This document shows positions 3,723-30,531 of a stretch of DNA of 32,000 nt, piece after piece. The notes beneath the pieces are model-generated. The model saw only the letters and a list, made by a program, of their open reading frames with translations. It was not told the origin of the DNA and ran no database searches. The DNA is from Mycobacterium asiaticum (GTDB taxonomy: Bacteria; Actinomycetota; Actinomycetes; Mycobacteriales; Mycobacteriaceae). The position numbers and the translations under genes are program-made. The DNA lies in the NCBI RefSeq assembly GCF_001673635.1, contig NZ_LZMH01000023.1, forward strand, positions 88,229-120,228, written 5' to 3'. Each line of letters opens with the position of its first letter. Position 1 is the stretch's first letter.

Positions 3723-3744
3723 CGCCTACCCCCCGTACCCCCGG

Positions 3745-8453: not shown

Positions 8454-8484
8454 ATTGATAACGCAGCGACGATAGTGAGTGCAG

Positions 8485-9108
8485 ATGCCGTCCGGAAATG
8501 GCCTTTCGCGCCGTGAGGAGTTGCTGGCTGTCGCCACCAAGCTGTTTGCCGCCCGCGGCTATCACGGCACTCGGATGGACGATGTCGCCGACGTGATCGG
8601 ACTGAACAAGGCGACGGTATATCACTATTACGCCAGTAAGGCGCTGATCCTGTTCGATATCTACCGCCAGGCCGCCGAGGGCACCCTGGCCGCCGTGCAC
8701 GACGACCCGTCCTGGACGGCCCGCGAGGCGCTGTACCAGTACACCGTGCGGTTGCTGACCGGGATCGCCGGCAACCCCGAACGCGCCGCCGTCTACTTCC
8801 AGGAACAGCCCTACATCACCGAGTGGTTCACTTCCGAACAGGTCGCCGAGGTGCGCGAGAAGGAGGCCCAGGTCTATGAGCACGTGCACGGGCTCATCGA
8901 CCGTGGCATCGCCAGCGGCGAGTTCTACGAGTGCGACTCGCACGTGGTCGCGCTCGGCTACATCGGGATGACGCTGGGCAGTTACCGCTGGCTGCGGCCG
9001 AGCGGCCGGCGCACGGCCAAAGAAATCGCGGCGGAATTCAGCACCGCGCTGTTGCGCGGTTTGATTCGCGACGAGGAGATCCGCACCACCGCGCCGCTGG
9101 GTCCGTGA
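8485..9108 (+). CDS. TetR family transcriptional regulator (Rv0158-like)
   Basis: The N-terminal HTH is LSRREELLAVATKLFAARGYHGTRMDDVADVIGLNKATVYHYYASK, and the protein is close along its length to my recollection of Rv0158. ATG 8485 is preferred over GTG 8479. Confidence 0.9.
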   Translation: MPSGNGLSRREELLAVATKLFAARGYHGTRMDDVADVIGLNKATVYHYYASKALILFDIYRQAAEGTLAAVHDDPSWTAREALYQYTVRLLTGIAGNPERAAVYFQEQPYITEWFTSEQVAEVREKEAQVYEHVHGLIDRGIASGEFYECDSHVVALGYIGMTLGSYRWLRPSGRRTAKEIAAEFSTALLRGLIRDEEIRTTAPLGP

Positions 9109-9112: not shown

Positions 9113-10540
9113 TTAGTTGAAGATCGGCGGGATGATGTGCAGCACGTCGCCGAGTGTCCCGCTGAGCAGGGACAGCGCCGTCACCGGAGGCTGGCTCAGG
9201 GCGGGGCCGAAGTAGAGGTTCAGACCCGGGTTGACCATCGGAACCCACGGGTAGGCGTCCGGGAAGTACTCCGGTCCCCAGAGTCCGGCCTGAACGCCGA
9301 TCTCGACGGCCGCGCCGTATGGCGCCTGCAGCAGTCCCTGGCCCATGTAGTAGGCGAAGTTGAACGGGTTCGGGATATTGATCAGCCCGGCGGGTGTGGG
9401 CAGATCCGCGTAACCGTCGGAATAGCCGAGGTCGATCATGACCCGTAACGGTGGCTGCAGCAGGTCGGCGATCACCGGTCCGGCGTAGGGGATGTCGCGG
9501 ATCGGCTGCAGTATCGGCAGGTTCTGGGTCAGGAACATGTAGTACTCGGTGTTGCCCGTGTATCCCGGTGAGGTCGGCAGCTGTACCGCGGTGGTGGACA
9601 GCAGGTCCGGGTAATTGCTGTGCACGTAGAAGTAGCCCATCAGCGCGTTGATGTCGGCCAGGATGTTGGTCGGGTACTGCGGTACGTGCGCGATGCCGTC
9701 GTACTGCGCGGTGTAGAAGTAGGTCTCGTACGGGCTGTTCGCCGGCGTGGCGCCGTTGAAGAGCACGTCCAGACCGGGGATGTAGAAGCCTGGGAAACGC
9801 GACAGCAGACCGCCGTTGGGGTTGTTGCCGGCCGCGGCCAGGATGAAAGCCACGTCGTTCGCGTGCTGCCCACCGGCGGCGATCATGTTGACGATCTGGT
9901 TGTGGACGATCGATGCGCTCTGCGAGTAGCCGAAAACGGCGATCTTCTGGGTAGCGACGAGCGAATTGATCTCGGCGTTCAATAGGGCCACACCCCTGGC
10001 CACGGATTGCGTGTACGTCATCGTGCCAAGGTCGGGGGTTATCGGCCAGAACTGCTCCGGAGTGAAGAAGCCGAGCGGCGTGCCGCTATTGAAGATCGGC
10101 CGGATGTAGTTCTTGTTGATGTCCGCCACGTACCTGGCCAAGGGGAGCGGGTTGCCGGTGCCGCCCATGATGATCGCGGTGTCGATGTTCAATGCCGCCG
10201 CTGGCGCCGCCAATGTCGTGGCGGTCCCGCCGCCGGCGAACGTGTTCAGCAGGGCGCCGTTGAATGCTTCGGCCTGCGTGTAAGCGCGCGCCGCTTCGGA
10301 CAGCGCCCGGTTGAACTCGCTCTGGAACAGCGCTGCCTGCCGGACAACGGTCTGATACTCGTCGCCAAAAGCGTTGAAAAAGCCCGCGATCGCCGCCGAC
10401 ACCTCATCGCCGGCCGCCGCCAGCAGGCCCGACGTCCGGCCGGCCGCGGCGGCATTGGCGGCGTGGATCGCCGCCGCGATCTGGTCGACATCCGTGGCCG
10501 CCGCCGCGAGCGACTCAGGGACTGTTAGCAAATAGGACAT
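9113..10540 (-). CDS. PE family protein with a PE-PPE domain (short form, 475 aa, lacking the C-terminal extension of the other three)
   Basis: The PE domain is MSYLLTVPESLAAAATDVDQIAAAIHAANAAAAGRTSGLLAAAGDEVSAAIAGFFNAFGDEYQ. It also has IIMGGTG, VFGYSQSA, GNNPNGG and YDGIAHVPQYP. GAAGGA lies upstream of the ATG at 10540. Its stop is only 4 nt from the convergent TetR stop. Confidence 0.9.
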   Translation of the reverse strand: MSYLLTVPESLAAAATDVDQIAAAIHAANAAAAGRTSGLLAAAGDEVSAAIAGFFNAFGDEYQTVVRQAALFQSEFNRALSEAARAYTQAEAFNGALLNTFAGGGTATTLAAPAAALNIDTAIIMGGTGNPLPLARYVADINKNYIRPIFNSGTPLGFFTPEQFWPITPDLGTMTYTQSVARGVALLNAEINSLVATQKIAVFGYSQSASIVHNQIVNMIAAGGQHANDVAFILAAAGNNPNGGLLSRFPGFYIPGLDVLFNGATPANSPYETYFYTAQYDGIAHVPQYPTNILADINALMGYFYVHSNYPDLLSTTAVQLPTSPGYTGNTEYYMFLTQNLPILQPIRDIPYAGPVIADLLQPPLRVMIDLGYSDGYADLPTPAGLINIPNPFNFAYYMGQGLLQAPYGAAVEIGVQAGLWGPEYFPDAYPWVPMVNPGLNLYFGPALSQPPVTALSLLSGTLGDVLHIIPPIFN

Positions 10541-13487: not shown

Positions 13488-14831
13488 ATGCTGGAGAGCC
13501 TGGCCGCCGTGGTGGGCTCGAACCACGTCATCACCGACCCGGACGTGCTGGCCGGCCGGAGCGTCGACCACACCGGCCGGTACCGCGGCCGGGCTAGTGC
13601 GCTGGTACGTCCCGGCTCGGCGGAGGAGGTCGCCGAGGCGTTGCGGGTGTGCCGCGATGCGGGCGCGTACGTGACGGTGCAGGGCGGCCGGACGTCGCTG
13701 GTGGCCGGCACGGTACCTGAACACGACGACGTGCTGCTGTCCACCGAAAGGCTCAGTGCGATAAGCGATGTGGACACCGCGGAGCGGCGAGTGACGGCCG
13801 GTGCCGGTGCCACGCTGGCGGCGGTGCAGGGTGCCGCCGCGGCGGCGGGGCTGTTGTTCGGCGTTGATCTGGCCGCGCGTGACACCGCGACCCTCGGCGG
13901 CATGGCGTCGACGAATGCCGGCGGCTTGCGGACCGTCCGCTACGGCAACATGGGCGAGCAGGTGCTGGGACTGGATGTGGCATTGCCGGACGGCTCGGTG
14001 GTACGCCGGCACTCTGCGGTACGGCGTGACAACACCGGCTACGACCTGCCGTCGCTGTTCGTCGGAGCGGAGGGCACTCTCGGGGTGATCACCGCGCTGG
14101 ATCTGCGCCTGCACCCCACCCCGTCGCACCGGGTGACCGCGGTGTGTGGATTCGACGACCTGGACGCGCTGGTCGAGGCGGGCCGGGTGTTCGCCGACGT
14201 CGACGGAATCGCGGCGCTGGAGTTGATCGACGCCCGGGGCGCGGCGCTGACGGGGGAGCACGCCGGGGTCGGCGCCCCGGTTCCCGGTGACTGGCTGTTG
14301 CTCGTCGAATTGGCCGGCGACCACGACCAGACCGACCGGCTGGCTGAGCTGCTCGACGGCATTACGGCTGCCCGAGGTTCGGAACCGGCCGTCGGCCTGG
14401 ATGTGGCTGCGCAGCAACGGCTGTGGCGGGTGCGCGAGGCGCTGGCCGAGGTGCTTGGCGTGTACGGGCCGCCGCTGAAATTCGATGTGTCACTGCCGTT
14501 GTCGGCGGTGAACGGGTTCGCCCGGGACGCGGTCGCGCTGGTAGGGCGCCACGAGTCCGATGCGCTGCCGGTGCTGTTCGGTCACATCGGGGAGGGCAAC
14601 CTGCACCTGAACGTGCTGCGTTTCTCGACCGAGCGCGAGGCGGCGCTGTACGCCGAGATGATGGACCTGATCGCCGGCTGCGGCGGCAACGTCAGCTCCG
14701 AACACGGCGTCGGGACCCGCAAGCGGCCCTACCTGTCGATGTCGCGTGAGCCCGCCGACATTGCGGCGATGCGGACCGTCAAGGCGGCGCTGGACCCCAC
14801 GGGTTATCTCAACCCGGCCGTGCTCTTCTAA
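13488..14831 (+). CDS. FAD-linked oxidase (GlcD / D-lactate dehydrogenase-like), 447 aa
   Basis: The FAD-binding PCMH-type N-terminus is VRPGSAEEVAEALRVCRDAGAYVTVQGGRTSLVAG. It also has NAGG and a C-terminal SSEHGVG motif. It is possibly the Rv0161 counterpart, but that is memory only. Confidence 0.82.
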   Translation: MLESLAAVVGSNHVITDPDVLAGRSVDHTGRYRGRASALVRPGSAEEVAEALRVCRDAGAYVTVQGGRTSLVAGTVPEHDDVLLSTERLSAISDVDTAERRVTAGAGATLAAVQGAAAAAGLLFGVDLAARDTATLGGMASTNAGGLRTVRYGNMGEQVLGLDVALPDGSVVRRHSAVRRDNTGYDLPSLFVGAEGTLGVITALDLRLHPTPSHRVTAVCGFDDLDALVEAGRVFADVDGIAALELIDARGAALTGEHAGVGAPVPGDWLLLVELAGDHDQTDRLAELLDGITAARGSEPAVGLDVAAQQRLWRVREALAEVLGVYGPPLKFDVSLPLSAVNGFARDAVALVGRHESDALPVLFGHIGEGNLHLNVLRFSTEREAALYAEMMDLIAGCGGNVSSEHGVGTRKRPYLSMSREPADIAAMRTVKAALDPTGYLNPAVLF

Positions 14832-15376
14832 TCCGCACCTTTGATGCCGACAGCGTGCCGCAGCTGCGCCAGGAACTGCTCGCCGTCGTCGCTGCGCACC
14901 ACGTAGTGCGAGATGGCGATCCGGATGACGGTGGCCGCCTTCACCGCGGCGTTGGGGCCTGGCAGCAAGCGCTGCAAACCCGCGCGCATCTCCGGGATCA
15001 CGCCCGACATCTGAGCAATAACGTGCTCGGGTTCGATGTCGACCATGCGCACGCCGGAGTAGGAGTACTGGTAGTCGACGATGAATCGCAGTGCGGCGTC
15101 CAGCCTTTCGACGCCCTTCAGCCCGGCGGTAGCTTTAGCCAAACCGCGTTCGAAGATCTCGCGCTCGTAGCGCGAGAACGCCGAGAGCAGTTCTTCCTTG
15201 GAGGCGAACCAGCGGTACAGCGTCGGCCGCGACACCCCGGCCTGGGTGGCGACCTCGGAAAGGCTGAGTTTGGTCTTGCCGCTGCGGGCCAGCACCTCGG
15301 CCGTGGCGGCCAGGATCCGCTGACGGGTCGAGGTGTCGGTGTCCGGGATTTCGTCCACCTGGGCATTCTGGCTCAT
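14828..15376 (-). CDS. TetR family transcriptional regulator, 182 aa
   Basis: From ATG 15376 the protein has the HTH RQRILAATAEVLARSGKTKLSLSEVATQAGVSRPTLYRWFASKEELL. The start overlaps the upstream gene's stop (ATGA at 15373-15376). The stop overlaps the convergent FAD-oxidase stop (CTAA at 14828-14831). Confidence 0.88.
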   Translation of the reverse strand: MSQNAQVDEIPDTDTSTRQRILAATAEVLARSGKTKLSLSEVATQAGVSRPTLYRWFASKEELLSAFSRYEREIFERGLAKATAGLKGVERLDAALRFIVDYQYSYSGVRMVDIEPEHVIAQMSGVIPEMRAGLQRLLPGPNAAVKAATVIRIAISHYVVRSDDGEQFLAQLRHAVGIKGAD

Positions 15377-16218
15377 GAGTTCTCCCCCGGTGGCTTGTTG
15401 GGCTTGGGTGGCCTGGGTCGTACCAGCACAGACTGCTGGATGGCGCCCACCGCGCTGTGTTCGTCGAACAATGTCCCGATTGTCGTTCCGATGCCGTCCG
15501 GCCCGTAGCTGGTTTCCGCCCGGATGCCGATCCAGTCTCCCTCCGGGACCCGGAACACGTGCACGGCCAGGTCCGTGTTGAGGAAAGTCCACTTGCTGAT
15601 GTCGAGCTTGCTGCCGATGCCGTTGGCGCAGTCGGCCACCGCGAACAGCCGCTCCAGCTGGGTCATGGTCTCGCCGGCGACCAGGTCGGCGATCGGTCTG
15701 ATCCACGATTCGCCCGGACCCGCTGTCAGCGGCTCGGTCAGCCAGAGCCACTCGAGGCTGTGCACGTAGTTGCGGTCCCAGTTCATCGCTTTGATGTTGC
15801 GGTTGTACGCCTCAGACGGCGGACGGGGCAGCGGGGTGGGTGCGTGCACCACGGCGGCGGTGTCGAGCTTCTGCAATCGCCAGCCGCTGGCCCGAGCGAC
15901 CGGGCGGGGTTGGCCGTCGGGGGCCAGCGCCCGCATCTCGGCGGTCACCAGCTCGATCTGGCGGCCGCCGCGGTCCACGGAGGAACGCACCCACAGGTCG
16001 CCCTCGGCCGGGACCGGGCCAAGCAGGTCGATGACCACCCGGCTGAGCCGGGTATCCTCGCGCGCCTGGCAGCGTTCCAGCGCGCGGACCAGCAACCCTG
16101 ACACCGGGCCGCCGTGCTGGATGGCCGCCGACCAGGTGCCCCGGGCCAGGTCGGTGGCCCGGAACTTTTCGCCCGCGGCGTCGTCGGCGTCGATCAGCTC
16201 GTAGTACGAGTCGGACAT
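15373..16218 (-). CDS. TesB-like double hotdog thioesterase family protein, 281 aa
   Basis: ATG 16218 has AGAGGTG upstream. The sequence (HGGPVSGLLVRALE, two hotdog-like halves, about 280 aa) fits the actinobacterial thioesterase family (4HBT_3-type). The longer ORF-track N-terminus is Arg/Pro-rich and was rejected. Confidence 0.65.
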   Translation of the reverse strand: MSDSYYELIDADDAAGEKFRATDLARGTWSAAIQHGGPVSGLLVRALERCQAREDTRLSRVVIDLLGPVPAEGDLWVRSSVDRGGRQIELVTAEMRALAPDGQPRPVARASGWRLQKLDTAAVVHAPTPLPRPPSEAYNRNIKAMNWDRNYVHSLEWLWLTEPLTAGPGESWIRPIADLVAGETMTQLERLFAVADCANGIGSKLDISKWTFLNTDLAVHVFRVPEGDWIGIRAETSYGPDGIGTTIGTLFDEHSAVGAIQQSVLVRPRPPKPNKPPGENS

Positions 16219-16236
16219 GGCACCTCTTTGCTCGGG

Positions 16237-16269
16237 GGTTCGCTCGCGGTTCGCTTCGGGTTCGCTCAG
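16237..16269. repeat. Three phased copies of GGTTCGCT at 11-nt spacing (ggttcgctcgc / ggttcgcttcg / ggttcgctcag)
   Basis: Read directly. The copies start at 16237, 16248 and 16259 and fill most of the 47-nt gap between the SMP-30 stop (16266-16268) and the thioesterase start (16218). On the mRNA strand this is 3 x AGCGAACC. Confidence 0.7.
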
Positions 16270-17087
16270 GGCAGCCCGGCGCCGGGGACGTCCACCCGCA
16301 CGGCGTCCAGCCGGGACAGGCGGGTTCCCGCCAGTCGCTTGGGGTAAGCGTCGGTGCTGGACAACAGAAACAGGGTGCGGCGTTCCGGCCCGCCGAGCGC
16401 GCACGCGATCGCGACCCGGTCGCCCATGTCGATGCGGTCGGTCACCTCGCCGCCCTCGGTGATCCGCTCGAACTGGTGTGTCAGCGTCATGGCTGTCCAT
16501 ACTCCGCCCCCGGCGTCGAGCGCGATGCCGTCGGGCGGCCCGTCGAGCTTGTCGGCGAATATTCTTCTGTCGCTGAGGCTCCCGTCCGGGTCGATCGTGA
16601 ACGCGGTGAGCCGCCGGCCCATCGACTCGGCGACGATGAGCGTCCTGCGGTCCGGCGTGATCACCATGCCGTTGGGAAACTCGAGGTCGGCGGCGACGAC
16701 GGTCGCGTGATCATCGGGGTCGAGGCGAAGGATCACCCCGCCTTCATATGCCTGCGAGCCGATGTAGGCACGACCGCTGTCGTCGACGACCATGTCGCCG
16801 AGGTCGGCCGGAGCAAGTTCGGACAGGTCGACCAGGGGGAGAACGGTCTCGCCGTCGTAGCACAGCACCATCCGGTCCTCGGCCGACACGATCAGCAGAC
16901 AGCCGTCGGGCCGGAAGCCCAGGCCGGACGGCGAGTGTCCCGGCAACGGGACGGTGGTCAGCGAGCCACGGATGTCGGATGTGTGGACGGCTTCACCGAG
17001 CATGTCCGAGAACCACAGCAGCCCCTCGAACCAGCGCGGACCCTCGCCGAAGCAAAAGCCGTGGGCCAGCGGCGTAGGCGGCGCCAT
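16266..17087 (-). CDS. SMP-30 / gluconolactonase / LRE family protein (lactonase-like beta-propeller), 273 aa
   Basis: From ATG 17087 the protein reads MAPPTPLAHGFCFGEGPRWFEGLLWFSD..., followed by repeated propeller-blade motifs (PDG, NG, DxxG). No convincing SD is present (only AAAGGT abutting the ATG), so the transcript may be leaderless or the start may differ. Confidence 0.8.
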   Translation of the reverse strand: MAPPTPLAHGFCFGEGPRWFEGLLWFSDMLGEAVHTSDIRGSLTTVPLPGHSPSGLGFRPDGCLLIVSAEDRMVLCYDGETVLPLVDLSELAPADLGDMVVDDSGRAYIGSQAYEGGVILRLDPDDHATVVAADLEFPNGMVITPDRRTLIVAESMGRRLTAFTIDPDGSLSDRRIFADKLDGPPDGIALDAGGGVWTAMTLTHQFERITEGGEVTDRIDMGDRVAIACALGGPERRTLFLLSSTDAYPKRLAGTRLSRLDAVRVDVPGAGLP

Positions 17088-17089
17088 AC

Positions 17090-17120
17090 CTTTACAAATC
17101 ACTGCAAAAGTGTCATGCAC
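17090..17120 (+). promoter_or_regulatory. Conserved AT-rich motif, copy A: CTTTACAAAT-cactgca-AAA-g-TGTCA-tGCac
   Basis: Of 31 aligned positions, 20 are identical in all three copies (A, B, C). Copy A begins 3 nt upstream of the SMP-30 start codon, in the 117-nt divergent intergenic region. Confidence 0.65.
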
Positions 17121-17149
17121 CACGGGCTGCCGTGTCAACGCGCATGCAA

Positions 17150-17180
17150 CTTTACAAATAGTGAGCAAAGTGTCACGCTG
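17150..17180 (+). promoter_or_regulatory. Conserved AT-rich motif, copy B: CTTTACAAAT-agtgagc-AAA-g-TGTCA-cGCtg
   Basis: Copy B lies exactly 60 nt downstream of copy A. Its TGTCA ends 29 nt before GTG 17205 and 38 nt before TTG 17214. It can be read as a -35 TTTACA, a 17-nt spacer, a TGn extended -10 and the hexamer CACGCT. Confidence 0.65.
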
Positions 17181-17204
17181 AGCCGTGAGCTGCCGGAACG
17201 AGGG

Positions 17205-18095
17205 GTGAGCGCTTTGACGACAGAATCCGAACAGGTCCAGTGGTCGGTCCAGAGTCTGTTGGATCTTTTCGAGGTGGAGGCGGCCGGACCGGATCGGTTC
17301 ACCGCGCAGACCGGCTTGGCCGGGCAGGACGGCAGGCAGGTCGTGGAGGGCACCCAGGTGGTCGCCCAGGCGATCGTGGCCGTGGCGAATCGTTTCCAGG
17401 GCAAGGCGGTTCGGTCCGCGCATGCGGTGTTCGCCCGCGCCGTGCTGGTGGGCCCGCCGCTCGAGTTGGTCCTCGACGTGTTGAACGAGGGCCGGTCCAC
17501 CGCCACCGCGATCGTCTCTGCCGTGCAGAATGGCAAGCGCTGTGTCAGCGTGACCGTCCTGACCGACGTCCCGACCGGCGACGTTATTCGCCACCATGTG
17601 CCGCGGCCCGACGTCGCCGCACCCGCGGACGCGCACAACTCAGAGATGCCGATGCTGGGTCGGCAGGTGCGGGTCGTCGACGTGGTCGACGTCAACAGTC
17701 CCGACGAGGTCGGTCCGCCGGAATTGTACGCGTGGCTGCAGTACGACCCGATCCCCGACCGTGACGACCTGGCCAAGGCGCTCGTCGCGTACTTCACTGG
17801 ACACCTGGGTATTTCGACCACGATGCGCGCGCACCCGGGAATCGGCACCAGTCAGGCTCACCTGACCGTGTCGACCGCGCCGATGTCGATCTTCGTGTCG
17901 TTCCACGAACCGGTGCGCTGGGACGACTGGTTGCTCTACTCGCACGAGAGCACTCAGGTGGGTGCGGGAATGTCGTATGTGCGCGGCACGGTGCACACCG
18001 AGGCGGGCGACCTGCTTTGTTCCTTCGCGCAGGAAGCGCTGATCCGCCCGCTGCGCACCACTGACACTTCGATCGACGCCGCGGCCCGGTTCTGA
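17205..18095 (+). CDS. Acyl-CoA thioesterase II (TesB-like), about 296 aa
   Basis: It has double hotdog architecture, with SLLDLFEVEAAGPDRFTAQT... typical of TesB N-termini and a C-terminal half containing SLDHAMWFH-like HEPVRWDDWLLY. The start is ambiguous: GTG 17205 has GAGGG immediately adjacent, whereas TTG 17214 has better SD spacing. Confidence 0.8.
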   Translation: MSALTTESEQVQWSVQSLLDLFEVEAAGPDRFTAQTGLAGQDGRQVVEGTQVVAQAIVAVANRFQGKAVRSAHAVFARAVLVGPPLELVLDVLNEGRSTATAIVSAVQNGKRCVSVTVLTDVPTGDVIRHHVPRPDVAAPADAHNSEMPMLGRQVRVVDVVDVNSPDEVGPPELYAWLQYDPIPDRDDLAKALVAYFTGHLGISTTMRAHPGIGTSQAHLTVSTAPMSIFVSFHEPVRWDDWLLYSHESTQVGAGMSYVRGTVHTEAGDLLCSFAQEALIRPLRTTDTSIDAAARF

Positions 18096-18099
18096 TTCC

Positions 18100-19020
18100 A
18101 TGCGATTCACCATCACCCATCCGATGCACAGCCACCCGTATAACCCGGAGCTGGCCAGTGGGTCGGGTATCGCGACCGTGGCGGGAGCGGCGGAAAAGGC
18201 GGGATTTCACGGTTTCGGGTTCACCGACCACCCCGCCCCGTCCCAACGCTGGCTGGACGCCGGCGGACACGATGCCCTGGATCCGTTTGCGGCCCTTGGC
18301 TTTGCGGCGGCACACACGACGACCCTGCGCCTGATTCCGAACGTGGTGGTGTTGCCCTACCGAAACCCGTTCGTGGTGGCCAAATCCGGGATGACACTGG
18401 ATTTGCTTTCGGGTGGCCGGTTCACGCTGGCGGTGGGGGTGGGTTACCTGAAGAAGGAATTCGCCGCGCTTGGGGTGGATTACGACGAGCGCGCCGAGTT
18501 GTTCGAAGAAGCGCTGGAGGTGATTCGCGCGGTCTGGACCGGTGACGACATCACCTATGAGGGAAAGCATTTCACCGCACGCGGGATCACCGCGCATCCA
18601 CGTCCGAGCTCCCAGCCGCATCCACCGATCTGGATCGGCGGCAACACGGCGGCGGCGCGCAAGCGGGTCGCCGAGCATGGTGATGGTTGGTGTCCCTTTG
18701 CGGCACCGGCGGGTTTGGCGCGCACCGCGGGCACCGCGGTCATCGATTCGGTGGATGCCCTCGCGTCCGGCATCGACGACATGCGGCGGCGGTGCGAAGC
18801 GGCCGGCAAGGACCCCGCGGCCGTCGATATCACCTTCACCAACTTCGAGGGCGGCAGCCCCGCGGCCGACGACTTCAACGCCGACGCATACCTGGCCGGG
18901 GTGGAAAAGCTTGCGGCCCTGGGCGTTACCTGGCTACAGGTCGGGCTCCCCGGCGACAGCGTGTCGCATGCGGTGGAAGTCATCGACCGGTTTGGTTCGC
19001 TGGTAATCGATGTGATCTGA
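18100..19020 (+). CDS. Luciferase-like monooxygenase (LLM) class oxidoreductase, probably F420-dependent, 306 aa
   Basis: This is a TIM-barrel LLM pattern (GFHGFGFTDH, LPYRNPFVVAK, GRFTLAVGVGY, PPIWIGGN) resembling the mycobacterial F420-dependent LLM subfamily. It starts 4 nt after the tesB-like stop. Confidence 0.8.
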   Translation: MRFTITHPMHSHPYNPELASGSGIATVAGAAEKAGFHGFGFTDHPAPSQRWLDAGGHDALDPFAALGFAAAHTTTLRLIPNVVVLPYRNPFVVAKSGMTLDLLSGGRFTLAVGVGYLKKEFAALGVDYDERAELFEEALEVIRAVWTGDDITYEGKHFTARGITAHPRPSSQPHPPIWIGGNTAAARKRVAEHGDGWCPFAAPAGLARTAGTAVIDSVDALASGIDDMRRRCEAAGKDPAAVDITFTNFEGGSPAADDFNADAYLAGVEKLAALGVTWLQVGLPGDSVSHAVEVIDRFGSLVIDVI

Positions 19021-20190
19021 ATGGATTTCGCGCGCGTATCACTCTCCGATGAAGACGAGGCTTTCTACCGGCAGACCCGGGCCTTCGTCACCGAACACGT
19101 CACCGACGACGTGCGCCGCCGAAACCGCGAGTTCGGTGAGAACTTCGACGAAGGCGTGCATCTGGCATTGGGTGAAGCGGGTTACCTGGCTGGCGATTTC
19201 AAGCCCGAATCCGAGGGCGGCTTCAGCGCGGTGCGCCGGCGCATCTTCAACCTGGAGATCGGCCGGGCGCACACCCCTTGGTATCACTGGGGCACCACGT
19301 CAGCGGTCGCGCGATTGGTAGCGGAGTTCGCTCAACCGGAACTGGTGGACATGGTGCTGCCGGGGGTGCTTTCCGGGCATGTCCGGCTGTGTCTGGGCTA
19401 CACCGAACCCGAGGGAGGATCCGACGTCGCCACCTGCAAGACCCGCGCGGTGCGAGAAGCGGATGGATCGTGGGTCATCAATGGCTCCAAGATGTTCACC
19501 TCGAACGCGCAGAACGCCAAATACGTCTTCCTGCTTACCAACACCGATCCCCAAGGGCTGAAACACCGGAACCTCACCATGTTTCTGGTCCCGCTGGATT
19601 CGCCTGGCATCGAGATCCAGGGGATCCGCACCCTCGACGGCGATCGCACCAACATCGTCTTCTACAGCAACGTCCGGGTCGACGACCTGTACCGGATCGG
19701 CGGGGTGAACGATGGCTGGACGGTGATGCGGTCGGCGCTCGCGGCCGAACACGGCCTGACACAGGGCGATGACGAGGGCTTACAGGACGCTGGAACCATG
19801 GCAGGACACGGCATGCTGATGGCGGAGGCGGTCGACCGGGTCGCCGCTTTGGTCTCCATCGCCGACGACTCCGCCCAGTACCGCCTCGGACGCGATTTCG
19901 CCCGTGTCGAGGCGGCGTTGTCCACGCCCAGCATGTACGGCCGCGTCGCGATCGGGCAGACGATGCGTGATATTGCCGCCGATCTGATGGATCTGTTGGG
20001 GCCGGCATCGGCCTTGCCGACCGAGGTCAAGGGGTCACCGGATGGCGGTGTCACCGAACACCTCTTCCGGCTGTCCCTGCCGATGGGAATTTACGGGGGC
20101 AGCCTGGAAGTGTTCCGCAACATGATCGCCCAGCAGGAACTGCGGCTGGGGCGGCCGGCTTATGGCGCGGGTAAATCCGCCTCGACCTGA
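19021..20190 (+). CDS. Acyl-CoA dehydrogenase, 389 aa
   Basis: ACAD motifs are present (GYTEPEGGSDVA, INGSKMFTSNA). The ATG immediately follows the LLM stop. The C-terminal motif is IYGGSLEV rather than the usual YEGT (see findings). Confidence 0.85.
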   Translation: MDFARVSLSDEDEAFYRQTRAFVTEHVTDDVRRRNREFGENFDEGVHLALGEAGYLAGDFKPESEGGFSAVRRRIFNLEIGRAHTPWYHWGTTSAVARLVAEFAQPELVDMVLPGVLSGHVRLCLGYTEPEGGSDVATCKTRAVREADGSWVINGSKMFTSNAQNAKYVFLLTNTDPQGLKHRNLTMFLVPLDSPGIEIQGIRTLDGDRTNIVFYSNVRVDDLYRIGGVNDGWTVMRSALAAEHGLTQGDDEGLQDAGTMAGHGMLMAEAVDRVAALVSIADDSAQYRLGRDFARVEAALSTPSMYGRVAIGQTMRDIAADLMDLLGPASALPTEVKGSPDGGVTEHLFRLSLPMGIYGGSLEVFRNMIAQQELRLGRPAYGAGKSAST

Positions 20191-20843
20191 ACCTTTTCCG
20201 TATCGAAGCTCAAATAGTCTCGGATGGCCGCGCTTTCGGGTAGCGGTTCGTCGTAGCTCCAGGCGATGTCCTCGATGACCGTGCCGCCTTGGTCGATGGT
20301 GGCCGCCCAGTATGTGGCGACGCCCTTGTAGTTGCAGTACGACGACGTTTCGGTCTTGCGGAGCAAGTCGGTTCGGACGTGCTTCGGTGCCACGTAAAGC
20401 CTTGGGGCGAGCGCGGTCTCGAAGACGATCACGGTGTCGTCGGTGTCCACCAGCGGGATGCCGTCGATGGCGACGCGCAGGCGTCTGGTGGTCGGACGGC
20501 AGTCGACGCGGTGATAAGGGTTCGGCGGATAGTGCACCAGTTTGCGGCCCTCCTCGAACCAGGTGTCGACCGCGTGCCACGGAACGTGCACGTATCCGGG
20601 CGCTTCGGGTTCGGGCTCGGTAGGCAGGCCGGTGATACCTTCGGCGGGAAATGCATAGCTCAGTGGGCGATTTCGCCGGTGCACCAGCAACGCCTTCTCG
20701 GTGTCGATGACGGTCCGCCCGTGGCGGACGGCCTGAATGCGGCGCGGATGGGGTTCGATGTATACCACCTCGGCGGGTATCGGCGGCGCGAAGCGCCCCG
20801 CTGGATCGGCACTCAGTGGGCCGCGGCCGGCGACCAGGCTCAT
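20160..20843 (-). CDS. DUF427 domain protein (two DUF427-like halves), 227 aa
   Basis: ATG 20843 has GGGAGGAA upstream. A repeated pattern (...TVIDTEKALLVHRRNRPLSYAFP... and ...PLVDTDDTVIVFETALAPRLYVAP..., CNYKGVATYW) is typical of DUF427. The 3' end overlaps the convergent ACAD gene by 31 nt. Confidence 0.7.
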   Translation of the reverse strand: MSLVAGRGPLSADPAGRFAPPIPAEVVYIEPHPRRIQAVRHGRTVIDTEKALLVHRRNRPLSYAFPAEGITGLPTEPEPEAPGYVHVPWHAVDTWFEEGRKLVHYPPNPYHRVDCRPTTRRLRVAIDGIPLVDTDDTVIVFETALAPRLYVAPKHVRTDLLRKTETSSYCNYKGVATYWAATIDQGGTVIEDIAWSYDEPLPESAAIRDYLSFDTEKVQVEADLPAP

Positions 20844-20972
20844 GGCGTTCCTCCCATTCCTCCCGGTGTGTAACCGTCCACCCAAACATCCCCTTGAACG
20901 ACGAGGATCCCGCCGCCGGTGGCAAGACGATGTCGGCGGCCCTCAAATGCCGTTGCCGCTAACACTGTCGGA

Positions 20973-21758
20973 TCACCACGCTTTGGAGCCATGTCGACCC
21001 GCACCATCGGCGAATCGCTGTGCGCCTGCCTGCAACTCGGATGCCGAACGTGACAGGCTGGTGAACTCGAAGTCCATGGCCTCGGCCTCGCTCCGGCCCC
21101 ACTGATAGAGCATCGACATACGGTCGGAGCGCATGCACAGTTGCGGCAGCGCCGCAAGTTCGGCGGCAAGCTCCTCGGCGGCGGCTCGGGCGGTGCCAGT
21201 CGGCACAACGCGATTCGCCAAGCCGATGGCCAGCGCCTCGGTCGCGTCAACCGGGCGCCCGGTGAGGATCAGATCCATCGCCCGGCTGTGCCCGATCAGC
21301 CTTGGGAGCCGGACCGTACCGCCATCGATCAACGGTAATCCCCAGCGTCGGCAGAACACGCCGAAGGTTGCATCCTCCTCGACCACTCGCAAATCGCACC
21401 ACACCGCCAGCTCTAGGCCGCCAGCGACGGCATAGCCACTGACAGCGGCGACCACCGGTTTGGACAGGACCATCCGGCTAGGACCCATCGGCCCCGGACC
21501 GGTCGGGTTCACCGGGTTGAAGTCACCTGTCTCGGCTCCTTTCAGATCCGCGCCCGAGCAGAAATTTCCGCGATCCCCCCACAGCACAGCCACCGACGCG
21601 GAATCATCATTGTCGAACTCCTCGAACGCGGCGACGAGCGCGGCGGCAGCAGATCCGTTGACCGCGTTCCGGGCCTCCGGACGATCCATGATCACGGTGG
21701 TCACTGCCCCGTTCTTCTCGACCCGAATGCCGCCGGTGCTCTTGGTTTCAGTCGTCAT
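20973..21758 (-). CDS. Enoyl-CoA hydratase/isomerase (crotonase) family protein
   Basis: Crotonase motifs are present: RPEARNA, FCSGADLKG, AAVSGYAVAGGLELAVWCD. ATG 21758 (AGGTG upstream) is preferred over GTG 21764. Confidence 0.88.
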   Translation of the reverse strand: MTTETKSTGGIRVEKNGAVTTVIMDRPEARNAVNGSAAAALVAAFEEFDNDDSASVAVLWGDRGNFCSGADLKGAETGDFNPVNPTGPGPMGPSRMVLSKPVVAAVSGYAVAGGLELAVWCDLRVVEEDATFGVFCRRWGLPLIDGGTVRLPRLIGHSRAMDLILTGRPVDATEALAIGLANRVVPTGTARAAAEELAAELAALPQLCMRSDRMSMLYQWGRSEAEAMDFEFTSLSRSASELQAGAQRFADGAGRHGSKAW

Positions 21759-21845
21759 GCCCACACCTACGACGGTATCCGCACCGCCCGGACCGGAAGG
21801 GTAAATGCCCCGGTGCCCGCAGCACTACGGCGTCGGATTCGGACG

Positions 21846-21858
21846 TCGAACACTTCGA
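21846..21858. promoter_or_regulatory. Candidate operator palindrome TCGAA-CAC-TTCGA
   Basis: It has 5-bp arms (7 with one mismatch) and sits in the 220-nt divergent region between the crotonase and CoA-transferase genes. Confidence 0.2.
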
Positions 21859-21978
21859 TGGTCGGCGTGATCGGCAAGTCGCCGGTGACACCGTGCTTTG
21901 GACTTCGGTGACCGACCCGCGCGAACCAGAGGCGTTGCCGGACGATCCACCGTTGTAATGCGCGGTTAGGGTTCATTC

Positions 21979-23148
21979 ATGGCCGGACCGGTTGAAGGCA
22001 TCAGGGTCGTCGAACTCGGAGTTTGGGTGGCGGGGCCGGCGACGGGCGGCATCCTGGCCGACTGGGGCGCGGATGTCATCAAGATCGAGCCGCCGAGCGG
22101 TGATCCCGGACGGCTTTTCGGGCGGATGCTGGGTTGCGAGCTGGGGGTGAACCCGCCGTTCGAGATGGACAACCGCTCCAAGCGCAGCATCGTGCTGGAC
22201 CTCACCACCGAGTCCGGTCGCGGCACCGCCCTCGAATTGCTCGCCGAGGCAGACGTTTTCATCACCAACGTGCGACCGGGGGCGCTGCAGCGGCTGGGGC
22301 TGGATTACGAGTCGGTGTCCGCCGCCAACCCCCGACTGGTCTACGGACTGATCACCGGCTACGGCGACAGCGGGGCCGACGCCGACCGGGCGGCCTACGA
22401 CGTGGCGGCCTTCTGGTCGCGCGGCGGCATCGCGCATCTGCTCACCCGGCCCGGTGACACACCGCCCTTCCAGCGTGGCGGCATGGGCGACCATTCGGCC
22501 GGGATGACCCTGGCGGCGGCGGTCTGCGCGGCGCTGCTGGCCCGTGAGCGCACCGGCTCCGGGCAACTGGTGACCACCTCGCTCTACCGCCAGGGCGCCT
22601 ACACCGTGAGCTTCGACCTCAACACCTACCTGCTCACCGGTCAACCGATCGCGATCGGACAGCGCGCGACCATGGGCAACCCGTGCATGAACAATTACGC
22701 CGCGGGCGACGGGCGGCGCTTCTGGATCGTCGGCCTCGAGGTCGACCGGCACTGGCCCGCCCTGTGCCGAGTGGTGGGCCGGACCGAGTGGCTGGACGAC
22801 CCGAGGTATGCCGACGCGCGCGGCCGTGCCGTCAACGCAGTGCAACTCATCGCCGAACTGGACGAGATCTTCGCGACCAAGCCGCTGGCCGAGTGGTCGG
22901 AACTGTTCGCGGCCGAGCCGGACTTCTTCTGGTCGCCGATCAATTCCATCGAGGACGTCGTCGCCGACGAGCAGTTCCACGCCGCGGGCGGGATCGTCGA
23001 CGTACCGGACGGCGATTCCAGCGTGCCGATGGTGGCCACCCCGGCGGATTTTCGCGGAACGCCCTGGTCACCGCGGTCGGTAGCGCCGACCCTCGGCCAG
23101 CACACCGACGAGGTTCTCGCTGAGCTGGCCGTCCGGCGGGACTCCTGA
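21979..23148 (+). CDS. Family III CoA-transferase (CaiB/BaiF family), 389 aa
   Basis: The N-terminus GIRVVELGVWVAGPATGGILADWGADVIKIEPPSGDP and the central YDVAAFWSRGG... pattern are typical of family III CoA-transferases and racemases. Confidence 0.88.
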   Translation: MAGPVEGIRVVELGVWVAGPATGGILADWGADVIKIEPPSGDPGRLFGRMLGCELGVNPPFEMDNRSKRSIVLDLTTESGRGTALELLAEADVFITNVRPGALQRLGLDYESVSAANPRLVYGLITGYGDSGADADRAAYDVAAFWSRGGIAHLLTRPGDTPPFQRGGMGDHSAGMTLAAAVCAALLARERTGSGQLVTTSLYRQGAYTVSFDLNTYLLTGQPIAIGQRATMGNPCMNNYAAGDGRRFWIVGLEVDRHWPALCRVVGRTEWLDDPRYADARGRAVNAVQLIAELDEIFATKPLAEWSELFAAEPDFFWSPINSIEDVVADEQFHAAGGIVDVPDGDSSVPMVATPADFRGTPWSPRSVAPTLGQHTDEVLAELAVRRDS

Positions 23149-23161
23149 GCGCCCGCGACAG

Positions 23162-23192
23162 CTTTACAAATCTCCCTAAAACTGTCACGCTG
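23162..23192 (+). promoter_or_regulatory. Conserved AT-rich motif, copy C: CTTTACAAAT-ctcccta-AAA-c-TGTCA-cGCtg
   Basis: Copy C matches copy B at 23 of 31 positions. It lies in the 79-nt gap upstream of the nine-gene P450 operon, and its TGTCA ends 40 nt before ATG 23228. It is followed by the hairpin CGCTGTC-caatgccct-GACAGCG (23188-23210). Confidence 0.65.
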
Positions 23193-23227
23193 TCCAATGC
23201 CCTGACAGCGCGGCGAGGAAGGGATCG

Positions 23228-23773
23228 ATGGTCACTCCAACGTTCGACATCAGCGGGCACCCCGCGAACCGTGCTCGCCGGACCTCCGTCGACGGCGAGG
23301 TGCTACGGCATCGGCTGGACGTATTCGCGGCCCGGCCGGATGACGTCGTGCAGACGGCCGGCGGGTGGCTATTCGACCGGGTGATGGCGGGCTGGCAGGT
23401 GAATGTGATGCTGCCGGGCGGCGGCGATGACAGGTCGCTGCGCATCCTCGGTGTGCAGGTGCTGGACCTGGAATCGGAGCTGGACCTTTCGGCACCACTG
23501 AGCCAGAGTCTCGCCGTCAGCGGCGAAGCGTTCATCGCCCACGGGTGCCTGCGTGAAAAGATGCGCAAGGCCATGGGCAACCGGCTGGTCGAGGTCGCGC
23601 TGTGGGGTCAAGGTTGGCCCCTCGGTACCGACCGCAGCCTCGTCCGGACCGAGTACCAGCTCAGCGCGGCGGCCCGGGCCTTTAAGGGGCAGGCGTTACG
23701 CGCAGCCGGAATCGCCTACCAGTCAATCGATCCCAGCGAAACCTTGTTCACCGACTCAGCTTGGCTGGGCTGA
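23228..23773 (+). CDS. Conserved hypothetical protein, 181 aa (weak, degenerate PIG-L/LmbE-like N-terminal motif)
   Basis: It has a strong SD (GAGGAAGGGA) and high GC3. The segment AARPDDVVQTAGGWLFDRVMAGWQVNVML resembles the AHPDD-x4-GG-x8-G-x-V-x-V signature of LmbE/PIG-L deacetylases, but with Arg in place of the metal-binding His. Confidence 0.6.
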   Translation: MVTPTFDISGHPANRARRTSVDGEVLRHRLDVFAARPDDVVQTAGGWLFDRVMAGWQVNVMLPGGGDDRSLRILGVQVLDLESELDLSAPLSQSLAVSGEAFIAHGCLREKMRKAMGNRLVEVALWGQGWPLGTDRSLVRTEYQLSAAARAFKGQALRAAGIAYQSIDPSETLFTDSAWLG

Positions 23774-23782
23774 CGCATTGCG

Positions 23783-24487
23783 ATGAAGAAGTATTTCGGC
23801 CACACCCTGCTCTACCTGCACGAGACGATCGAGCTGGGCTCCGGGCGAAGCGACCGCTTCACCGAGGTCTTCGTCGACACCTATCAGCCCTTGATGGAGG
23901 AGCTGGGCGCTCGGCTCTTCTCGATCTGGCAGAGCACGCCCTACAACGGGCACTGGCCGCAAGTGACGATCATCTGGGAGATCGACGCGTTCGGCGATTA
24001 TGCCCGGATCGGGGCCGCGCAGGCCCGCGGCGGCAGCCACGAGGCCGCGGCCGGCAAATGGGCGGCGTTTCTGGCCGACATCGGCGCCAAGGGGGAGGGC
24101 CGGATCATGTACGCCGGACCGAGCAACAGGCCCCTGGCCCAGCTACGCGAGACCAATTTCGATGCGTCACTGGTCATTCAGGAGATCATGCAGACCAAGC
24201 CGGGCCGGCAGGACGACTACATCCGCGAACTGGAACGGTTGTATGTGCCATGGTCGGAGCGCACTGGCAAGCATTGGCTCGGTTCCTTCACCACAACCTT
24301 CCGGTTCAACGAAGTGATCCACTACTGGGCGCTGGAGGGCGGTTGGGAATGCTTCGCCAACCACTACCCGTCCTGGAAGGACAGCCCGCCCGCCGAGATC
24401 GTCACCTGGATGAGCGTGGCCCCGGCGCTGCGTGACGGTTGGGAGGACTCCATCCTGCAGGCGCTACCGCCGTCGCCACTGCAGTGA
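23783..24487 (+). CDS. NIPSNAP-like / dimeric alpha-beta-barrel protein (two repeats), 234 aa
   Basis: Two similar halves each contain a W...W(E/A)(I/L) pattern (FSIWQSTPYNGHWPQVTIIWEIDAFGDYARI and LGSFTTTFRFNEVIHYWALEGGWECF), as in NIPSNAP domains. This family call is made by eye only. Confidence 0.5.
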   Translation: MKKYFGHTLLYLHETIELGSGRSDRFTEVFVDTYQPLMEELGARLFSIWQSTPYNGHWPQVTIIWEIDAFGDYARIGAAQARGGSHEAAAGKWAAFLADIGAKGEGRIMYAGPSNRPLAQLRETNFDASLVIQEIMQTKPGRQDDYIRELERLYVPWSERTGKHWLGSFTTTFRFNEVIHYWALEGGWECFANHYPSWKDSPPAEIVTWMSVAPALRDGWEDSILQALPPSPLQ

Positions 24488-25692
24488 GTTTCTCCTACGA
24501 CCCGTTCGACGCGCGTGTGATGGCCGACCCGCTGCCGTACTACCGCACGCTGCGCGACGAGCATCCGCTGTATTACATGCCGCAGTGGGACACCTACGCG
24601 TTGTCGCGCTTCGACGACATCTGGCGGGTGCTGGAAGTCAACGACGGCACCTTCGTCGCCTCGGAAGGAACGCTGCCGGCGGCATCTGTTCTGGCCCAGC
24701 ACAATTCCGGGCCGATCCCCGACCCGCCACTGCATCCGCTACCGTTCCATGCGGTGTTCGACGCGGACCTGTACGGCGAGATCCGGCGTGCCCACTCACA
24801 ACCGTTGCGGCCCAAGTGGGTCGCGTCGCTGGAGGGCAGGATCCGTGCGTTGGCCAATGAACGCCTCGACGAGCTGATCCCGCGTGGTTCCTTCGATCTG
24901 ACCCAGGACTACGGCGGCATCGTGGTCGCCTCGATCGTCTGTGAATTACTGGGAATCGCAACGGATCTCGCTCCGCAGGTATTGGCCGCCGTCAATGCCG
25001 GCAGCCTGGCTGAGCCCGGCGAAGGCGTCGATACCGCGGAGGCCCGGCCGAACTACCTGGGCTTCCTGGTCCCAGTGGTCGAGCGGCGTCGCGCGGAGCG
25101 CAACGGCGCGTTGCCCGTCGTCGACGGACTGCTCGCCTACCGGCTGCCCGACGGCAGCGCTCTCGACGACACCGAAGTAGCCACCCAGATGCTGTGCATC
25201 TTCATCGGCGGCACCGAAACCGTGCCCAAGATCGTCGCCCACGGACTGTGGGAACTCAGCCGGCGGCCCGAGCAACTGGCGGTGGTCCGCGCCGACCCGA
25301 ACGCCAACGTGCCGGTCGCCCGCGAAGAGATGATCCGCTATTGCGCACCGGCACAATGGTTTGCCCGCACCGCGCGCAAGCCGTTCACCTTGCACGACCA
25401 CACCATCGCGCCGGGACAACGCATCATCACGCTGCTGGCATCGGCCAACCGAGACGAGCGGGAGTACCCCGACCCCGACCAGTTCATCTGGGACCGCCCC
25501 ATCAAGCGCTCCCTGGCCTTCGGGCGGGGGCAGCACTTCTGCATCGGCTACCATCTGGCCAGACTGGAAGTCGCCGTGCTGGTTCAGGAATGGCTGCGGC
25601 GGGTTCCCGACTTCGGCGTCCGCGAGCGCGACGCCACCCGGTTGCCCTCCAGCTTCCAGTGGGGCTGGAACAACATTCCGGTGGAGGTGTGA
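24484..25692 (+). CDS. Cytochrome P450, 402 aa
   Basis: It has the heme-ligand loop FGRGQHFCIGYHLA (FxxGxHxCxG), the I-helix FIGGTETV, the ExxR motif EEMIRY, and the N-terminal YDPFDARVMADPLPYYRTLRDEHPLYY. GTG 24484 overlaps the upstream stop (GTGA). Confidence 0.92.
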   Translation: MSFSYDPFDARVMADPLPYYRTLRDEHPLYYMPQWDTYALSRFDDIWRVLEVNDGTFVASEGTLPAASVLAQHNSGPIPDPPLHPLPFHAVFDADLYGEIRRAHSQPLRPKWVASLEGRIRALANERLDELIPRGSFDLTQDYGGIVVASIVCELLGIATDLAPQVLAAVNAGSLAEPGEGVDTAEARPNYLGFLVPVVERRRAERNGALPVVDGLLAYRLPDGSALDDTEVATQMLCIFIGGTETVPKIVAHGLWELSRRPEQLAVVRADPNANVPVAREEMIRYCAPAQWFARTARKPFTLHDHTIAPGQRIITLLASANRDEREYPDPDQFIWDRPIKRSLAFGRGQHFCIGYHLARLEVAVLVQEWLRRVPDFGVRERDATRLPSSFQWGWNNIPVEV

Positions 25693-25693
25693 C

Positions 25694-26662: not shown

Positions 26663-27399
26663 GTGTGTTCCGCAACAACTCCAAGTCACCCATCTGGGGC
26701 GGCTGGGTGACCGGGCCAACCCAGCACGGACCGCAGGAATTCGCCCGTGCCGGTTACGATTACGTCGGATTCGACACCCAGCACGGGTATCTCGACGACG
26801 GCGACGTGGCGAACCTGCTGCGCCACCTCGAACACGTTCCGATCGCGACCGCGGTTCGGCTGCCCAACGCCGACCCGGCACCCATCGGGCGCGTGCTGGA
26901 CGCCGGCGCCGACGCTGTCATCATCGCCATGATCGAGTCAGCCGACCAGGCCGCGGCCGCGGTGGCTGCCACCCGCTACCCCCCGGCCGGCGTACGCAGC
27001 TTCGGCCCGCTGCGGGCCGGCCTGGGCCTCGATCCTGGCGCCCTGCAATCCCGGGCGAACGTATTCGCCATGATAGAGACGGCCGCGGCTCTGCAGGATG
27101 TGGAAAACATATGCGCGGTAACGGGTTTGACTGGCATCTACCTCGGACCCGCCGACTTGGCCATCTCGTTGGGTGCGAACGTTTCAGGGGCTACCAAGGA
27201 TGAGCGGGTGCTCGAGGCGATCACCCGAACCCGCGAGGTGGCGGCCGCCGCGGGATTGGTCACCGGTATCCATGCCAGTGACGGCAAGACCGGTAACGCG
27301 ATGGCGGAGCTCGGCTTTGAGATGATCACCCTGGCATCGGAGTCGCAGGCCCTGCGCCGGGGAGCGGCCGAACACCTGCGCGAGGCGACCGGCAAATGA
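26659..27399 (+). CDS. HpcH/HpaI family aldolase (class II, 2-keto-3-deoxy-acid aldolase-like), 246 aa
   Basis: The pattern WGGWVTGP...AGYDYVGFDTQHG...VRLP...DAGADAVIIAMIES...YPPAGVRSFGP...MIET...GIYLGPADL matches the HpcH/HpaI aldolase/citrate-lyase fold. It overlaps the upstream stop in an ATGA. Confidence 0.85.
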   Translation: MSVFRNNSKSPIWGGWVTGPTQHGPQEFARAGYDYVGFDTQHGYLDDGDVANLLRHLEHVPIATAVRLPNADPAPIGRVLDAGADAVIIAMIESADQAAAAVAATRYPPAGVRSFGPLRAGLGLDPGALQSRANVFAMIETAAALQDVENICAVTGLTGIYLGPADLAISLGANVSGATKDERVLEAITRTREVAAAAGLVTGIHASDGKTGNAMAELGFEMITLASESQALRRGAAEHLREATGK

Positions 27400-27797: not shown

Positions 27798-27799
27798 CG

Positions 27800-30517: not shown

Positions 30518-30531
30518 GTTGGAATACAACC

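Follow-up and report, generated by a model that had tools for sequence, protein, structure and literature searches.

A 32,000-nt stretch of the Mycobacterium asiaticum genome (contig NZ_LZMH01000023.1; hereafter the window, meaning the whole stretch that was analysed) carries three copies, A, B and C, of a 28-bp element in two intergenic regions of a conserved catabolic gene cluster. We consider it probable that the TetR-family repressor encoded at 14828-15376 uses this element as its operator and that the element is built into the core promoters of the cluster. The motif, its conservation and positions, its dyad, the promoter geometry and the linkage to the TetR gene were all established by comparing sequences.

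Within the window, the pattern CTTTACAAAT-N7-AAAnTGTCAnGC occurs at 17090, 17150 and 23162, each time on the plus strand (Table 1), and a search of the whole 32 kb allowing up to 3 mismatches returned copies A, B and C only. With the base composition of the window, ~1e-8 chance matches to the 18 specified bases are expected, and 100 dinucleotide-preserving shuffles yielded 0 matches. Copies A and B differ at 7/7 positions of their 7-nt centre and have identical flanking blocks, which indicates selection on the blocks and not a recent duplication. A first-pass annotation had described two same-strand copies starting exactly 60 bp apart in a 117-nt intergenic region, and both descriptions agree with the sequence: the region spans 17088-17204, from the ATG of the SMP-30/SGL gene (17087, minus strand) to a GTG at 17205, and has a GC content of ~0.58-0.60 compared with 0.66 for the window. 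The base between AAA and TGTCA, described there as variable, departs from G in copy C only, since A and B both have G. The 60-bp spacing is likewise a local feature. By alignment it is specific to the species group of the window, and across species copies A and B lie 60 to 1210 bp apart. We therefore rejected helical phasing for cooperative binding as an explanation of the spacing.

To follow the element across species, one genome per prokaryotic species was scanned for the exact pattern CTTTACAAAT-N7-AAAnTGTCA, yielding at least 120 loci; all locus counts given here are among the matches listed from this genome scan. At least ~95 of these loci lie on high-GC Mycobacterium or Actinomycetota contigs, and the remainder come from AT-rich genomes, in which the pattern is expected to turn up by chance. 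In the mycobacterial loci, conservation runs on as ...TGTCACGCTG, beyond the positions that the pattern required. When the window proteins were mapped onto the loci, the same cluster was recovered in nearly all of them. The genes downstream of the exact pattern in related mycobacteria are mostly orthologs of tesB (at least 65 sites, 72-96% identity) and of orf181 (at least 21 sites). Exact matches never exceed 3 per assembly (80 loci with contig names), as expected of a small local regulon and not of a dispersed repeat. Two findings had been named in advance as speaking against a regulatory role, namely a generic repeat at hundreds of unrelated sites and absence from orthologous intergenic regions. 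The scan gave the opposite in both respects, with sites located before orthologous genes and the motif kept in at least ~95 Mycobacterium loci.

Copies outside the original search were collected with a relaxed pattern (up to 4 mismatches). An A-type copy, with one mismatch to the pattern, stands beside the SGL gene in ~60 loci and has the consensus CTTTACAAAaCAccGcaaAAGTGTCAyGCA...GgTGTCAAt. A fourth, degenerate operator type, CTTTACGAAGTATCGCCAAgGTGTCACGG, was found ~9 nt from the TetR start in species that have a gap between the thioesterase and TetR genes (L044 6819-6844, L081 5358, L087 3465, L089 1273, L090 2628 and L121 9943-10000). Its position before the TetR gene suggests that TetR has a separate promoter in these species, under its own control. 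This type is missing from the window because the thioesterase and TetR genes there overlap by 4 nt. The M. marinum/ulcerans locus, which was fetched via the TetR protein independently of the motif, contains all four site types.

A position matrix built from 173 distinct sites resolved the symmetry of the element. The best dyad axis lies between motif positions 14 and 15 (score 11.2 vs 7.0 for the next best), with the symmetric high-information pairs C1/G28, T3/A26, A5/T24, C6/G23 and A7/T22. The element is thus a 28-bp imperfect palindrome with the half-site CnTnACA (C-n-T-n-A-C-A ... T-G-T-n-A-n-G), and its consensus is CTTTAC(A/G)AA-N10-(A/G)n(G/C/A)TGTCA(C/T)G. This single clear axis bears out the initial suggestion of an imperfect dyad.

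The gene-facing copies can also be read as promoters, in which TTTACA, 14 nt, TGT and CACGCT correspond to a -35 element, a 17-nt spacer with TGn, and a -10 hexamer. The hexamer CACGCT is present in 67/68 B-type and 31/31 C-type sites. All 59 of 59 A-type sites read CAyGCA instead and miss the final T, so that this base, which is needed for sigma-70-type -10 recognition, is found only where a rightward gene follows. The promoter reading, which the first-pass annotation had offered for the motif as such, accordingly applies to copies B and C and fails for copy A. A homology-supported start codon is located exactly 6-7 nt past the hexamer in five gene contexts: P450 (five fast-grower species), acyl-CoA dehydrogenase (ACAD; ATG in L042 and GTG in L075, behind different spacers), tesB (L088), a SnoaL-like gene (L066) and orf181 (L060). 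We read this distance as the signature of mycobacterial leaderless mRNAs, for which -10 elements 7-12 bp upstream of the transcription start site (TSS), strong TGn extended -10 promoters and the use of GTG as freely as ATG have been described (PMC3898074). The leaderless geometry predicts TSSs ~7 nt after CACGCT, at ~17185-17186 for tesB and ~23197 for orf181.

The tesB context in L088 (1842-1867, minus strand) is a natural leaderless variant, in which the 5' untranslated region is deleted and a GTG follows 7 nt after CACGCT. Alignment with this ortholog makes TTG 17214 a more likely start of tesB in the window than GTG 17205. Among C-type sites, 28/31 have a start codon (GTG, ATG or TTG) 5 nt after the hexamer, and the open reading frames (ORFs) opened there vary in length and are not conserved. 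In the window, a two-codon ORF (ATG CCC TGA, 23197-23205) begins 5 nt past the CACGCT of copy C. A conserved leaderless mini-ORF after copy B was considered and rejected, as the codon at that position is often CTG, GAA or GGA. The rightward promoters escaped a generic sigma-70 scanner, whose threshold CACGCT does not reach. The scanner's only call was GTGACA-N16-TAAAGT on the minus strand inside copy B (17149-17176). Other species mostly have TAAAGC there, and we set this call aside as probably not a conserved promoter.

At copy A, the conserved promoter signals face in the other direction. On the minus strand of A-type loci, TTGACA-N18-GACACT-N6-[G/A]TG is present in 60/60 cases (53 GTG, 7 ATG), so that copy A covers the predicted -10, TSS and first codons of the SGL-thioesterase-TetR operon. 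The start codon sits in the centre of the operator, which explains why conservation of the central bases is confined to A-type copies. This codon begins a mini-ORF of 7-14 codons (V/M-F-C-K...) in 46 loci, and the TGA of the mini-ORF overlaps the SGL ATG as ATGA in ~40/46 of them. An in-frame fusion to SGL is seen in 12 loci, among them the window and M. marinum, and in M. marinum and L088 the fused codon is the sole in-frame start available. The SMP-30 frame of the window is open from the GTG at 17102-17100, inside copy A and 15 nt upstream of ATG 17087, and the annotated start may therefore be placed 15 nt too far downstream. The first-pass proposal that the SMP-30 mRNA is leaderless or has a short leader holds only if translation starts at this GTG; with ATG 17087 it does not. 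The left half of copy A is conserved downstream of the leftward TSS, where promoter function is insufficient to account for it and a bound protein can. About 30 loci besides L006 (~5735-6221), L007, L023 and L029 have an extra gene of 158-163 aa between copies A and B, which widens the A-B distance to 545-630 bp. This gene shows a weak Polyketide_cyc2 (SRPBCC-like) match (E 0.019) and is missing from the window.

The TetR protein encoded by the last gene of this operon had been named early on as the candidate binder, and comparison of the loci supports the link. Every locus of sufficient length includes a TetR ortholog, and the motif travels with the TetR's cluster in at least ~50 species-level loci. 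In five fast growers (L010, L011, L069, L072 and L100) the cluster is rearranged and the motif lies between the P450 gene and a divergent TetR gene, whose product is 72-75% identical to the window TetR; the degenerate copies before the TetR gene point the same way. The sequence of the recognition helix, GVSRPTLYRWF, does not vary among the orthologs and paralogs with the shared motif, and the TetR is conserved in M. marinum (ortholog ACC38856.1), M. ulcerans, M. gordonae, M. szulgai, M. malmoense, M. haemophilum, M. xenopi and M. asiaticum. The TetR-P450 intergenic region of L011 (5410-5475) contains additional half-sites, ATTACAGG-N10-AGTGTCACG and GTGTCA-N7-TGACAC, which suggest further operators of different geometry before the TetR gene.

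The predicted structure of the TetR has the standard all-helical TetR fold (predicted local distance difference test, pLDDT, 75). Its best Foldseek matches are 6o6n, 6o6p, 6c31 and 5gpa (FasR, Rv0078, FadR), with TM ~0.6 and 16-23% identity. A sequence search of the PDB found no close TetR relative, and the fold search gave generic TetR neighbours only. These neighbours, which sense acyl-CoA or lipids, fit weakly with a lipid-derived inducer.

Several observations weigh against the proposed assignment. The scan required the exact pattern, and conservation at the pattern positions is thus partly by construction. The inverted repeat expected of a TetR operator is present, though symmetry extends to only 5-6/10 half-site positions, and the departures from it are conserved as well (T2, T4, A8, A9 vs C27, C25, G21, A20). 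The 14 bp between the ACA and TGT cores are wider than in a typical operator for a single TetR dimer, and a QacR-like two-dimer mode is possible. Compared with housekeeping (SigA-type) promoters, CACGCT and GACACT alike have A2 and T6 and lack T1 of TANNNT; TGn is present in copies B and C, and the hexamer-to-start distances across the loci fit leaderless mRNAs. Promoters without TANNNT may use alternative sigma factors (Cortes et al., PMC3898074). Finally, no TetR ortholog is encoded within 8 kb of the sites in L042, L059, L066, L075 and L083.

Some of these sites lie outside the cluster. The motif stands before an ACAD ortholog in L042 and L075; in L042 (M. senegalense, 5081-5720) this gene is leaderless, is accompanied by a 4HBT_3 thioesterase gene and lies beside an ECF sigma-ogt operon. 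In L066, the motif precedes a SnoaL_4 gene beside rpsP, and in L059 and L083 (Mycolicibacter) it precedes an SDR gene. The out-of-cluster copies in L042, L066, L059 and L083 are possible extra members of the regulon.

Binding by this TetR, and repression rather than activation, are what we infer from these comparisons, which support promoter and operator readings that hold together. The element overlaps the promoters that sequence and leaderless geometry predict for the putatively regulated genes and for the regulator's own operon. In copies B and C the operator itself would be the promoter, with the left half (TTTACA) serving as the -35 element and the TGT of the right half as the extended -10, followed by CACGCT. 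Bound repressor would mask the entire RNA polymerase site at the tesB-LLM-ACAD and orf181-P450 operons, and repressor and polymerase would compete for the same 30 bp. At copy A, where the element faces away from the gene it controls, bound repressor would block open-complex formation or initiation. Because copy A would control the SMP-30-thioesterase-TetR operon, the TetR is proposed to repress its own synthesis, and in some species a further operator directly before the TetR gene would add to this. Induction would occur when a pathway ligand, perhaps an acyl-CoA or another lipid-derived compound, releases the repressor.

A more elaborate combined reading, which we put forward only tentatively and think rather unlikely, treats the 28-bp element as a reusable two-faced promoter-operator module. 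Rightward it would supply the -35 and extended -10 elements; leftward it would supply the -10, the TSS and the first codon of a leaderless mini-ORF, whose translation would be coupled to that of the first gene. A repressor at this one site would compete both with RNA polymerase and with leaderless initiation by the 70S ribosome. Across Mycobacteriaceae, new genes (P450, ACAD, SnoaL-like, SDR) would have acquired copies of the module, whose conserved asymmetry and widely spaced half-sites would point to an unusual binding mode with two dimers or an asymmetric complex.

Apart from the proposed TetR operator, the element could be a promoter only, recognized by a housekeeping or alternative sigma factor, with an incidental dyad and a TetR that binds elsewhere or regulates other genes. 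The bipartite layout with its exact -35, 17-nt, TGn and hexamer geometry, the conserved asymmetry and the start codons 6-7 nt past the hexamer would all follow from this, as would the conservation of C, G and C in CACGCT beyond what a housekeeping sigma factor needs. We nevertheless regard it as improbable. Copy A is kept in ~60 loci despite a hexamer without the essential last T, and its left half is conserved downstream of the leftward TSS. Moreover, the element occurs in either orientation with respect to the gene it would regulate, fits no ECF, SigF or other known sigma consensus, and is tightly linked to one TetR lineage. The ECF sigma gene beside the L042 site also appeared to favour a promoter, but we rejected it as a lead, as it is part of the ogt operon, which is unrelated, and points away from the site.

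It is equally improbable, in our estimate, that the element is the operator of a different regulator, such as the Rv0158-like TetR encoded at 8479-9108 or a global lipid regulator, and that the local TetR has another target. The five sites with no TetR ortholog nearby are in its favour, as is the presence of this second TetR gene 8 kb away in the window. Against it, the motif still adjoins the ortholog of the 14828-15376 TetR where the fast-grower cluster is rearranged, and degenerate copies occur directly upstream of the TetR gene where it has a promoter gap of its own. M. tuberculosis, which we take to lack the cluster and its TetR but to have Rv0158, also counts against this explanation. 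A dispersed repeat, mobile-element remnant, structured RNA or chance similarity in AT-rich DNA, as a short AT-rich sequence found three times in one orientation within 6 kb might suggest, is effectively refuted by the divergent centres between identical flanks, the absence of flanking repeats, the fixed positions before orthologous genes in at least ~95 loci, the negligible chance expectation and a search of 16500-23600 with Rfam covariance models that gave no match at E <= 1.

The layout of the genes around the three copies was derived from Pfam and NCBIfam scans of the window proteins (Table 1). The cluster extends over ~14.6 kb (14828-29427), and each gene boundary in the minus-strand operon (SMP-30, thioesterase, TetR) is a 4-nt overlap. 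The orf181 product (181 aa; 23228-23773) had no significant Pfam or NCBIfam match. The same is true of the second gene after copy C (23783-24487), which showed sub-threshold NIPSNAP similarity only. Both genes are conserved beside the P450 gene in slow growers, the second one also in fast growers. Elsewhere in the window, four genes with PE plus PE-PPE domains lie within 302-5669 and 9113-10540, and among them are genes for a ptbB-like phosphatase, a fadE2-like protein, a DUF1348 protein and the second TetR. The flanks agree with what we take to be the M. tuberculosis gene order, Rv0151c-Rv0161 and Rv0162c-Rv0164. In that presumed order, Rv0161 and Rv0162c are adjacent with no cluster between them, and Rv0158 is present. 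By synteny and this assumed order, M. tuberculosis seems to lack the cluster here.

Table 1 Operator copies, predicted promoter elements and genes in the window.
Feature	Position	Strand	Remarks
Motif copy A	17090-17118	+	CTTTACAAATCACTGCAAAAGTGTCATGC
Motif copy B	17150-17178	+	CTTTACAAATAGTGAGCAAAGTGTCACGC
Motif copy C	23162-23190	+	CTTTACAAATCTCCCTAAAACTGTCACGC; one mismatch to pattern
Operator copy A (candidate)	17090-17117	+	CTTTACAAAT CACTGCA AAAGTGTCATG; overlaps SMP-30 operon -10, predicted TSS and first codons
Operator copy B (candidate)	17150-17177	+	Coincides with predicted core promoter of tesB-LLM-ACAD operon
Operator copy C (candidate)	23162-23189	+	Coincides with predicted core promoter of orf181-NIPSNAP-like-P450-ADH-aldolase operon
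Predicted -35 TTTACA, tesB promoter	17151-17156	+	Left half-site of copy B
Predicted extended -10 TGT + CACGCT, tesB promoter	17171-17179	+	
Predicted -35 TTTACA, orf181 promoter	23163-23168	+	
Predicted -10 CACGCT, orf181 promoter	23186-23191	+	
Predicted -35 TTGACA, SMP-30 operon	17138-17133	-	60/60 loci; conserved alignment block
Predicted -10 GACACT, SMP-30 operon	17114-17109	-	Complement of copy A right half
GTG, predicted TSS and leaderless start	17102-17100	-	6 nt after GACACT; in frame with SMP-30
TetR-family regulator, 182 aa	14828-15376	-	TetR_N PF00440, 2e-13; last gene of SMP-30 operon
4HBT_3 thioesterase	15373-16269	-	Pfam/NCBIfam; middle gene of SMP-30 operon
SMP-30/SGL lactonase-like gene	16266-17087, or to 17102	-	First gene of operon
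tesB-like thioesterase	TTG 17214 to 18095	+	First gene of plus operon; start predicted
F420-type LLM oxidoreductase	18100-19020	+	TIGR03619
Acyl-CoA dehydrogenase (ACAD)	19021-20190	+	
DUF427 protein, enoyl-CoA hydratase, family III CoA-transferase			Beyond ACAD
Operon after copy C	23228-27399	+	orf181, NIPSNAP-like, cytochrome P450, Zn-ADH, HpcH-type aldolase
SDR, esterase			Beyond HpcH-type aldolase
Rv0161-like FAD oxidase	13488-14831		Left flank
Rv0162c-like Zn-ADH	29417-30529		Right flank; 4HBT protein also on right
Second TetR, Rv0158-like	8479-9108		TetR_C_24

Taken as proposed, these results provide a specific, testable operator consensus and a small regulon for a TetR that is conserved in many non-tuberculous mycobacteria. 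The lipid-degradation cluster under its putative control encodes a P450, an F420-type oxidoreductase, an ACAD, a hydratase, a CoA-transferase, thioesterases, a lactonase, an aldolase and an esterase, and it may represent a catabolic capacity lost by the tubercle bacillus. The leaderless geometry gives precise TSS predictions and would correct two start-codon annotations. With the ligand in hand, the tight promoter-operator pair could be used as a switch for inducible expression. The system adds a new, unremarkable case to a well-known type of gene switch and leaves the understanding of TetR regulation unchanged.

In line with the first-pass annotation, the element matches none of the KstR, KstR2, CRP or ECF patterns. 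The KstR and KstR2 motifs TnnAACnnGTTnnA and AnCAAGnnCTTGnT do not occur in the window, and allowing 2 mismatches reveals neither of them in the two intergenic regions; the CRP site TGTGA-N6-TCACA is not matched; and neither ECF GGAAC-N15-19-CGT(T/C) nor SigF G(G/T)TT-N14-17-GGGTA has a match in either intergenic region. Papers on Mce3R and FasR contain no similar motif, and in the literature searched on the motif, the regulator and mycobacterial TetR operator surveys we found no description of either motif or regulator.

The size of the element is reminiscent of QacR, which controls an efflux pump and binds its 28-bp IR1 operator as two dimers. Both are imperfect palindromes of ~28 bp that overlap a promoter and are longer than one TetR dimer normally covers; unlike QacR, the window system involves a catabolic cluster, and the sequences show no similarity. 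The nearest solved folds, FasR, Rv0078 and FadR, are lipid-linked actinobacterial TetR regulators, but the identity and the model confidence reported above are low and moderate, respectively. FasR is moreover an activator, and its site known from crystallography, TACCCGTACGTAGAACTCGCCAGTA (PMC7382501), is unrelated to the motif. The start codons 6-7 nt after a -10-like hexamer resemble leaderless mycobacterial mRNAs (Cortes 2013, PMC3898074), and the short, unannotated, ATGA-coupled first cistron resembles leaderless upstream ORFs (Shell 2015, PMC4633059; Canestrari 2020, bioRxiv 10.1101/834739). In contrast to the latter, the F-C-K part of the mini-ORF is dictated by the overlapping operator, and it has a single Cys codon instead of a poly-Cys run, with nothing to indicate an attenuator.

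The closest parallel is with KstR and KstR2. There, too, a TetR protein controls itself and nearby lipid-catabolic genes (ACAD, hydratase, P450, thioesterase; PMC1995591), as we predict from the putative binding sites here. In both cases, a conserved inverted repeat overlapping promoter elements was found by comparing orthologous intergenic regions, and for the KstR operator the overlap is with a putative -10 (Kendall et al. 2007, PMC1995591). The operator sequence described here is unrelated, longer (28 bp vs 14 bp) and less symmetric, the window TetR is only distantly similar to KstR (NCBIfam 32.5 bits vs a cutoff of 280), and the regulon appears small and local. Most likely, judging from these parallels in sequence organization, the system works like KstR/KstR2 and other actinobacterial TetR repressors of lipid catabolism, outside the KstR/KstR2 regulons.

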